Origin: a virus
Lineage: Duplodnaviria; Heunggongvirae; Uroviricota; Caudoviricetes
Direction: 5' to 3' (one strand)
IMG/VR virus record: IMGVR_UViG_648028025_000010
Length of the DNA: 64,000 nucleotides
This document shows, piece by piece, positions 26,384 to 26,955 of this stretch. Made by a program: the position numbers and the translations under genes. Numbering within the stretch: the first letter of the stretch is position 1; each line of letters opens with the position of its first letter. Under the pieces are notes generated by a model, which was given only the letters and a program-made list of their open reading frames with translations, was not told where the DNA came from and made no database searches.

Positions 26384-26539
26384 AAGCAACTCCATCTGGC
26401 AGGTGAAAATCATGTTTATTTATATATTTCAATTAATTGCAAACTGGTCTAATGACAGGGAGAAAGAAATATTGTACAGGTGAAAAGAGAAATAACTTTT
26501 AATTATCAATAAATTACCAAACATGCTGCCGCCGCCATG

Positions 26540-26600
26540 GAAATGCAAAAACTAGCCTTTTTCCGCGACGCTCCCGCCCCGTGGCAGGGGCCCCCACCGG
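26540..26600 (-). other. Candidate cos site (cosN-like GC-rich element followed by AT-rich DNA)
   Basis: Minus strand reads GGGGCGGGAGCGTCGCGGAAAAAGGCTAGTTTTTGC..., resembling the lambda cos left end GGGCGGCGACCTCGCGGGTTTTCGC..., about 180 bp upstream of Nu1. Confidence 0.35.
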
Positions 26601-26767
26601 GAGGACCCGACAGCCTGACAGCCTGACAGCCGTGATGAGCATCTGATACAGCGCTTTACATAATGGCATAGGAATAATTCAGAAGGACATCACAGCATGC
26701 CCACACAAATTAGTGTGAGTGTCCTGTTTCTTCCTACGCACAGGACTGACGAGCATGAGGGGAAAAT

Positions 26768-26935
26768 ATGCGAACCATAAATGCCTCATCTTCAGCAATG
26801 CAACCGGCATCCGAACAGGACGATATTGTAAATTCACCTAATTACGAGGACATTGCAGTAGTTGAATTGCAGCTCTGTATTAGCCTGACAGTGACAGAAT
26901 GCGATATTGACTCTGTCACAGGTGAAATAGTTTGA
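26768..26935 (+). CDS. Small acidic hypothetical protein (55 aa)
   Basis: ATG preceded by a GAGGGG RBS. Translation MRTINASSSAMQPASEQDDIVNSPNYEDIAVVELQLCISLTVTECDIDSVTGEIV. Not in the ORF track (below 60 aa). Confidence 0.3.
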   Translation: MRTINASSSAMQPASEQDDIVNSPNYEDIAVVELQLCISLTVTECDIDSVTGEIV

Positions 26936-26955
26936 ATGATTAGCAGTTATGGTGC

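Follow-up and report, generated by a model that had tools for sequence, protein, structure and literature searches.

The 64,000-nt stretch of viral DNA analyzed here (the window; IMG/VR record IMGVR_UViG_648028025_000010) carries a gap between the last late gene and the small terminase gene of a lambdoid prophage, which raises the question of where this phage would cut its DNA for packaging, and whether a short tandem repeat and a small open reading frame in the same gap have anything to do with it. An earlier, sequence-only reading had proposed a lambda-like cosN-type element followed by AT-rich DNA, a triple repeat that could be a terminase or IHF-type binding array, and an unannotated acidic ORF of 55 amino acids; all of these lie where that reading had placed them. 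We are confident that positions 26384-26608 are a lambdoid prophage cos, that the adjoining repeat has no required role in packaging, and that the 55-aa ORF is most likely a chance frame.

Prophage setting and gene order

The window is 100% identical to E. coli O26:H11-type chromosomes, and the host element is a Qin-like lambdoid prophage of E. coli O26 with its late operon on the minus strand. Read toward cos and then past it, the late gene order is as follows.

29447-29944, Rz lysis gene, the start of the order
After the lysis genes, the cspI/ynfN/gnsB moron cluster
27448-27873, DUF1398 gene, a moron antisense to the late operon
26956-27162, minus strand, YbcW/YnfO-like 68-aa gene (phrog_657), the last late-operon gene before cos
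Gap of 570 bp between the YbcW-like gene and the DUF1441 gene, containing the cos region
25856-26383, minus strand, DUF1441 (Pfam) small terminase gene, phrog_141
23748-25847, minus strand, gpA-family large terminase gene, 699 aa
Beyond the large terminase, the portal, protease/capsid fusion and tail genes

The cos region is found nearly full-length in about 560 of 5,426 complete E. coli genomes, and its carriers include O26:H11 STEC, the AIEC strain LF82 (as prophage Tritos) and the Cdt-I toxin phage. Neither strand of 26200-27400 gave an Rfam family at E <= 1, and folding of the 347-nt spacer from ybcW to cosQ on each strand gave z = -1.0 and -1.2, with no excess of RNA structure.

The window also holds, directly after this prophage (ca. 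52000-64000), the tail region of a second lambdoid prophage, whose tail genes are 75-89% identical to those of the first. It has genes for an NleC-like Peptidase_M85 effector (52345-53331), a gpJ-type tail tip protein (56102-59578) and a tape-measure protein (62180-63982).

The cosQ-cosN-I2 core

The minus strand of 26563-26580 reads GGGGCGGGAGCGTCGCGG and is followed by A/T-rich DNA. This strand corresponds to the top strand of the phage, on which the following elements were recognized (slashes mark the predicted nicks).

26602-26608, minus strand, cosQ GGGTCCT, the packaging-termination signal, same as lambda cosQ
26563-26584, minus strand, cosN, 22 bp, CCACG/GGGCGGGAGCGT/CGCGG
26568-26579, minus strand, putative 12-nt 5' cohesive end GGGCGGGAGCGT
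26546-26567, minus strand, I2-like segment CGCGGAAAAAGGCTAGTTTTTG, the same in phi458 and PhiR40_1, whose cosB and TerS differ

Written continuously, the core is GGGTCCT-CCCGGTGGGGGCCCCTGCCACG/GGGCGGGAGCGT/CGCGGAAAAAGGCTAGTTTTTG, with which the lambda counterpart, GGGTCCT-TTCCGGTGATCCGACAGGTTACG/GGGCGGCGACCT/CGCGGGTTTTCGCTA, is colinear. The predicted nicks fall at 26580/26579 on the window's minus strand and at 26567/26568 on the plus strand; the first G of GGGGCGGGAGCGTCGCGG (26580) belongs to the right end, as its last base, and lies outside the cohesive end. The cohesive end GGGCGGGAGCGT is identical to that of lambda, GGGCGGCGACCT, at 8 of 12 positions, with bp 1-6 (GGGCGG) all matching and changes only at positions 7, 8, 9 and 11. 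CG dinucleotides flank both nicks, as in lambda (ACG/GGGCGG....../CGCGG), and the cosN shows rotational symmetry at 12 of its 22 positions, compared with 10 of 22 in lambda. From the start of cosQ to the nick there are 29 nt (the 7-bp cosQ plus 22 nt), compared with 30 nt in lambda, and the small terminase gene starts 196 nt from the nick, compared with 190. The likeness to lambda thus comprises an identical cosQ, the GGGCGG half of the end, the CG dinucleotides at the nicks, an IHF-type site after cosN and a gpA-family large terminase, whereas the cohesive end is changed at 4 of 12 positions and the cosB of the window is without lambda R sequences.

A search of the 64-kb window for the composite GGGTCCT-N19-ACGGGGCGG gave a single hit, and 100 shuffles gave none. 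The lambda cosN 20-mer has no match in the window at up to 3 mismatches, because the cohesive end carries four changes. Among lambda-like phages, the 7-bp cosQ is highly conserved, natural variation in the cohesive end is concentrated in bp 7-12 (Gifsy-1 differs at 8, 9 and 11), and termination of packaging needs cosQ, cosN and I2, all of which are conserved (PMC4669245). Several of the features by which that study recognizes a lambda-like cos are present here, namely similarity of the cohesive end, a cosQ at the lambda distance and CG-flanked nicks (PMC4669245). In addition, the site is placed immediately upstream of the genes for the small terminase and a gpA-type large terminase.

Ends of deposited phage genomes

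In the linear Tritos record (OV696610), the last base is the equivalent of window position 26580 and the first base that of 26579, and the record of phage cdtI (AB285204) begins at the equivalent of 26579. These termini, whether mapped or placed by homology, coincide with the nick predicted from sequence. Tritos, resident as a prophage in E. coli LF82, gives DNase-protected genomes, siphovirus particles and plaques; the paper that describes it does not discuss cos (PMC9928086). Its cos differs from that of the window at three polymorphic cosB positions only. In phage LLS, a more distant relative, a "5' extended single-strand cohesive site" of 12 nt is annotated at the homologous position, an annotation that was itself made by homology (PMC12315714). 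It is from the Tritos and cdtI record termini and the LLS annotation that a 12-nt, 5'-extended end is predicted. A scan of IMG/VR for the cohesive-end sequence found the site internal to contigs, mostly from isolate genomes as judged by their IMG identifiers, and so gave no independent evidence on virion ends.

That the resemblance to cosN is fortuitous, and that the phage packages by a headful (pac) mechanism, is scarcely credible. The large terminase is of the gpA family and not of the pac type, the window has a single cosQ-plus-cosN composite, phage records have been linearised exactly here, and the site is conserved in position across many lambdoid phages. The earlier proposal of a lambda-like cos is well supported by the colinearity with lambda cosQ-cosN, by the records that end or start at the nick and by the adjacent gpA-family terminase. 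Its location was correct as well; the distance to the small terminase gene, given as about 180 bp, needed correction, to the 196 nt counted from the nick to the ATG at 26383. The element is a genuine lambda-like cos, an unremarkable addition to a well-understood family that brings nothing conceptually new. Its practical value lies in the exact virion ends that may be assigned to a prophage family common in E. coli; known ends help to linearise genomes correctly, to annotate prophages and to design cos-based transduction assays.

Terminase genes

The small terminase subunit (TerS) has its conserved start at ATG 26383 (MSNVSG...), as in PSTCR8lys and in PGAP annotation. The start of the longest ORF, ATG 26413, reads CTG in Tritos and cdtI, and the 185-aa version of TerS is thus an over-extension. 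The protein is 100% identical to TerS of Tritos, cdtI and HannyBb (PP925841), and a genome-contig scan with it found two loci only. By sequence it falls outside the Nu1 family: its Pfam match is DUF1441, without Phage_Nu1, and BLASTP against Nu1 gave no significant pairwise similarity (E = 4.6). However, phrog_141 ("terminase small subunit"), to which TerS belongs, and phrog_57 (Nu1) give weak reciprocal cross-hits (1e-9 and 6e-8) over most of their length, which indicates that TerS and lambda Nu1 are remote homologues. A single-sequence AlphaFold model of TerS (pLDDT 44.7) was too poor to judge a winged-helix fold, and PDB sequence searches with both terminase subunits found no relatives.

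The large subunit (TerL) contains the ATPase domain PF05876 (GpA_ATPase) and the endonuclease domain PF20454 (GpA_nuclease). It is identical to Tritos TerL at 695 of 699 residues (99%) and 24% identical to lambda gpA, so that nick positions identical to those of lambda are an extrapolation. In strain E2865 (NZ_AP018808.1), whose 651-bp cos region is 100% identical to that of the window, the TerL gene beside cos (4154-6243) is annotated as frameshifted; in the window TerL is an intact 699-aa ORF.

cosB and the candidate protein-binding sites

Between I2 and the terminase gene lies the region that TerS would be expected to bind, with the following candidate sites (phage bp in brackets).

26384-26545, minus strand, cosB, ca. 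160 bp, from I2 to the TerS start codon, presumed to be bound by TerS
26504-26516, plus strand, IHF consensus match TATCAATAAATTA, candidate I1 (bp 64-76)
26477-26486, minus strand, candidate R site TTTTCACCTG (bp 94-103)
26400-26409, minus strand, candidate R site TTTTCACCTG (bp 171-180)

This cosB is positioned as in lambda, and its sequence is specific to the TerS group of cdtI, Tritos and HannyBb. Within it, TATCAATAAATTA matches the IHF consensus WATCAANNNNTTR exactly, as would be expected of an I1 site, and IHF is predicted to bind there. Matches to this consensus are no more frequent than chance in the window (3 observed, 2.4 expected), and the TTGAT core recurs at the same position in the cos of PhiR40_1, phi458, CP-1639, mEp043 and PSTCR8lys. 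Position and conservation, and not the consensus match alone, thus argue for the IHF site.

The sequence TTTTCACCTG has only two copies in the 64-kb window, both of them inside cosB. Natural haplotypes vary at bp 98 and 100, inside the core of the upstream copy (26477-26486), and its assignment as an R site is the weaker for it. The downstream copy (26400-26409) is invariant across 22 haplotypes, but it is close to the TerS ribosome-binding site. TerS of the Providencia phage PSTCR8lys and of a Trabulsiella prophage are 56% and 57% identical to that of the window, with nearly identical N-terminal regions. In the cosB of these relatives, CACCT cores occur at bp 56/99/125/174/188 (PSTCR8lys) and at bp 56/100/128/178 (Trabulsiella prophage), among them positions that match the TTTTCACCTG copies, an enrichment reached by none of 5,000 shuffles in PSTCR8lys and with P = 0.0004 in Trabulsiella. 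On this mixed evidence, the two TTTTCACCTG copies are reasonable candidates for R sites. Lambda R3 lies at bp 50-65 (PMC9026076); in the window cosB no clear equivalent was seen at bp 50-65, and an R3 assignment there was dropped for want of support. A generic search for repeats in cosB scored barely above shuffled sequence.

At the position of lambda R3, bp 44-60 (26520-26536), the window has a trinucleotide-periodic tract, GGCGGCGGCAGC, and its relatives have CATCATCATCAT, CACCACCAC or CAGCAGCAG there, depending on the type of cosB; inverted GATGATGAT copies occur further on in the cosB of VT1-Sakai and Fels-1. Such tracts may be TerS-specific R elements.

If packaging proceeds by analogy with lambda, TerS (DUF1441, the remote Nu1 homologue) would bind cosB through base contacts, helped by an IHF-induced bend, and would thereby place the gpA-family TerL, which would nick cosN twice, at positions 12 nt apart. 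The nicking chemistry and the 5' polarity of the overhang would likewise be those of lambda, leaving virion DNA with the left 5' overhang GGGCGGGAGCGT. After one genome length had been translocated, the cosQ (GGGTCCT), cosN and I2 of the next cos would direct the terminating cut.

Relatives and modularity

Phages Tritos, cdtI and HannyBb are the closest relatives compared, with cosN, I2 and cosB 97-99% identical to those of the window. Tritos also shares the three-copy repeat and the 55-aa ORF (98% identical), whereas cdtI is without the 8-bp repeat and the ORF region, and in HannyBb the ORF is broken and the repeat has two units, of which one is degenerate. A different relationship is seen with the mEp460-like phages (phi458, PhiR40_1 and Ayreon), which share GGGCGGGAGCGT/CGCGGAAAAAGGCTAGTTTTTG and have cosQ GGGTCCT also at 29 nt, but whose TerS is ca. 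42% identical and whose unrelated cosB has TGTCGA/TTCGAC-type repeats. The position of cos in Ayreon had been left unmapped (PMC5764929).

Gifsy-1, Gifsy-2, Fels-1, mEp213 and LLS form a further class with a DUF1441-type TerS and a gpA-type TerL, as in the window. The 12-nt ends of Gifsy-1, LLS and mEp213 are lambda-like with changes confined to bp 7-12, again as in the window: at 8, 9 and 11 in Gifsy-1 (PMC4669245), and giving the end GGGCGGCGCGCT in LLS and mEp213 (PMC12315714). The class differs from the window in a TerS of 35-42% identity and in unlike cosB sequences. Gifsy-2, Fels-1 and PSTCR8lys have GGTACTCC where cosQ has GGGTCCTCC. In the published modular model, conservation applies to the TerL-facing elements (cosQ, cosN and I2), and cosB changes together with TerS (PMC4669245). 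The mEp460-like phages, with a shared cosQ-cosN-I2 and a differing cosB and TerS, fit this model.

The same cos, with a TerS 99% identical and two repeat copies, was also seen in JAGZPX010000007.1, a contig of a Veillonella parvula metagenome-assembled genome; it is almost certainly a mis-binned enterobacterial phage contig.

Activity of this prophage copy

In contrast to Tritos, cdtI and HannyBb, the element in the window is a prophage whose int and xis carry IS insertions. The mobile elements concerned are listed below.

48992-51606, int region, in which int is interrupted by an IS600 copy (50025-51289)
46137-48752, IS66-family element (transposase 46137-47708; TnpA 48075-48752), which splits the excisionase gene (xisR in the colinear RM10386 record)
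37591-38931, ISEsa1-like transposase in the early region

The prophage is thus probably defective in excision, though its packaging, head and tail genes appear intact, and with int and xis interrupted its cos may be unused at present. We tentatively entertain the possibility that the site is a cos by descent that now stands idle, in a prophage that cannot excise and a strain that yields no infectious particles with these ends. The IS600, IS66-family and ISEsa1-like insertions speak for this, as does E2865, where an identical cos region adjoins a TerL annotated as frameshifted. Against it, the window has intact TerS, TerL, cosQ, cosN and I2, which match their counterparts in the active phage Tritos at 99-100% identity. 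For the colinear RM10386 prophage, the annotation likewise gives intact head and tail genes, and cleavage of cos might still take place in situ or be carried out by another resident phage with this specificity. An idle cos would bear on the current activity of the site and not on its identity as a lambda-like cos.

The 8-bp repeat beside cosQ

On its outer side, cosQ is directly abutted by a short tandem array.

26609-26631, plus strand, 8-bp tandem repeat, GACAGCCT x 2.9

Tandem Repeats Finder reports this array with period 8, 2.9 copies and 100% match, as one of six arrays in the window, and the 15-mer GACAGCCTGACAGCC occurs nowhere else in the window (0.08 chance matches expected). The number of copies varies among IMG/VR relatives, with 1, 2, 3, 4 and 5 copies counted 1, 21, 24, 2 and 1 times; the sample was 57 relatives with the cosN-cosQ block and perfect units, 55 of which have an identical block. 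Ten further IMG/VR relatives, from a diverged lineage, have GACAGCCTGACAACC at the position of the repeat. In cdtI, which has the same TerS, cosN and cosB, the palindrome TGATAATCA...TCA stands where the window has the repeat, and a palindrome of the same type lies upstream of cosQ in lambda (48440-48470), phi458, mEp043, VT1-Sakai and CP-1639. The conserved near-palindrome (A)TGATAATCATTATCA, which immediately precedes cosQ in several phages including lambda, is the alternative to the 8-bp repeat; we take it to resemble a Fur box. Among the 113 loci of a second sample, each upstream module was found with each type of cosB, and the point at which the modules are swapped is exactly the outer edge of cosQ, which marks that edge as the boundary of the functional cos site.

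A functional array, bound by terminase, an accessory protein or a host factor, would modulate cosQ-dependent termination, and its copy number would tune packaging. We consider this very improbable. The array does abut cosQ without a spacer, its perfect repeat is unique in the window, and a related sequence, GGCTGTCAGGCTGAC, adjoins cosQ in PhiR40_1. Yet it ranges from one to five copies among relatives that share the cosN-cosQ block, cdtI has unrelated sequence at its position despite having the TerS, cosN and cosB of the window, and lambda, phi458, mEp043, VT1-Sakai and CP-1639 have another module there. An 8-bp period would not set successive sites on one face of the helix, and the array is G+C-rich, unlike the IHF consensus, whose sole match in the region lies across cosN, at 26504-26516. 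Neither a fixed copy number nor co-occurrence with a cognate protein, as expected of a binding array, was found for the 8-bp repeat. The one-to-five copies, the absence from cdtI and the pairing with either cosB instead identify a slippage-prone VNTR in exchangeable DNA. By this comparison of sequences, the repeat is a copy-number-variable microsatellite that appears dispensable for packaging, and the suggestion of a terminase or IHF-type binding array is not upheld.

We give still less credence to a broader proposal, in which the cdtI/Tritos-type cosB (the CACCT-core candidates together with a DUF1441 TerS) would define a packaging specificity apart from those of lambda, 21 and N15, and a cosQ-fused array would tune termination or processivity. 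If such tuning were real, packaging efficiency would be a slippage-variable trait among E. coli prophages.

The 55-aa ORF

The remaining feature lies further out in the gap.

26768-26935, plus strand, 55-aa acidic ORF, antisense to the phage late operon

The ORF has an ATG start, GAGGGG 5-11 nt upstream of it and a net charge of ca. -9. The claim that it is unannotated holds for RefSeq/PGAP, which leaves it uncalled, but not for many GenBank E. coli records, where it is a "hypothetical protein", nor for PHROGs, where it matches phrog_4035. Both the phrog_4035 match and the GenBank calls reflect gene callers and are not evidence of a gene.

The frame is intact in 43 of 83 relatives, all of them with at least 97.6% nucleotide identity, and broken in the other 40. 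The disruptions include ATG to ACG, an ATG followed by TGA, and indels of 1, 2, 7 and 8 nt, and four of the disrupted haplotypes are 98-99% identical to the window. Among the few intact variant haplotypes there are six different amino-acid replacements. The homologous lambda DNA, which is 88% identical over 26810-27000, does not contain the frame. Conservation of the ORF, which the sequence-only reading had suggested checking, thus fails: all relatives below 97.6% identity, and several closer to the window, have lost the start or the frame, and the conserved frame and start that a coding sequence should show in diverged homologues were not found.

A real but evolutionarily young moron gene, antisense to the late operon, would account for an ATG with a good Shine-Dalgarno-like GAGGGG, for a frame intact in about half of the relatives, for the hypothetical-protein calls and the phrog_4035 grouping, and would have company in the antisense morons nearby, such as the DUF1398 gene. 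We nevertheless hold it to be quite improbable, given at least five independent kinds of disruption, some at 98-99% identity, the frame-free lambda DNA and the six replacements among so few variant intact haplotypes. The ORF also has no Pfam match and no PGAP call, a promoter and terminator scan found no terminator and no promoter-like site on its strand, and it is not among the expressed Tritos morons listed in LF82 (PMC9928086). Most likely, the 55-aa frame is open by chance, in late-operon DNA that is conserved but non-coding. Two false leads are thereby removed: the repeat is a VNTR and a possible typing marker, and the small ORF should not be carried forward as a gene in annotations.

Two other small ORFs in the gap, at 26514-26669 and 26679-26837 (both minus strand), are annotated as hypothetical proteins in phage HannyBb. 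One of them runs across the cos nick, and both are probably gene-caller artefacts like the 55-aa ORF.
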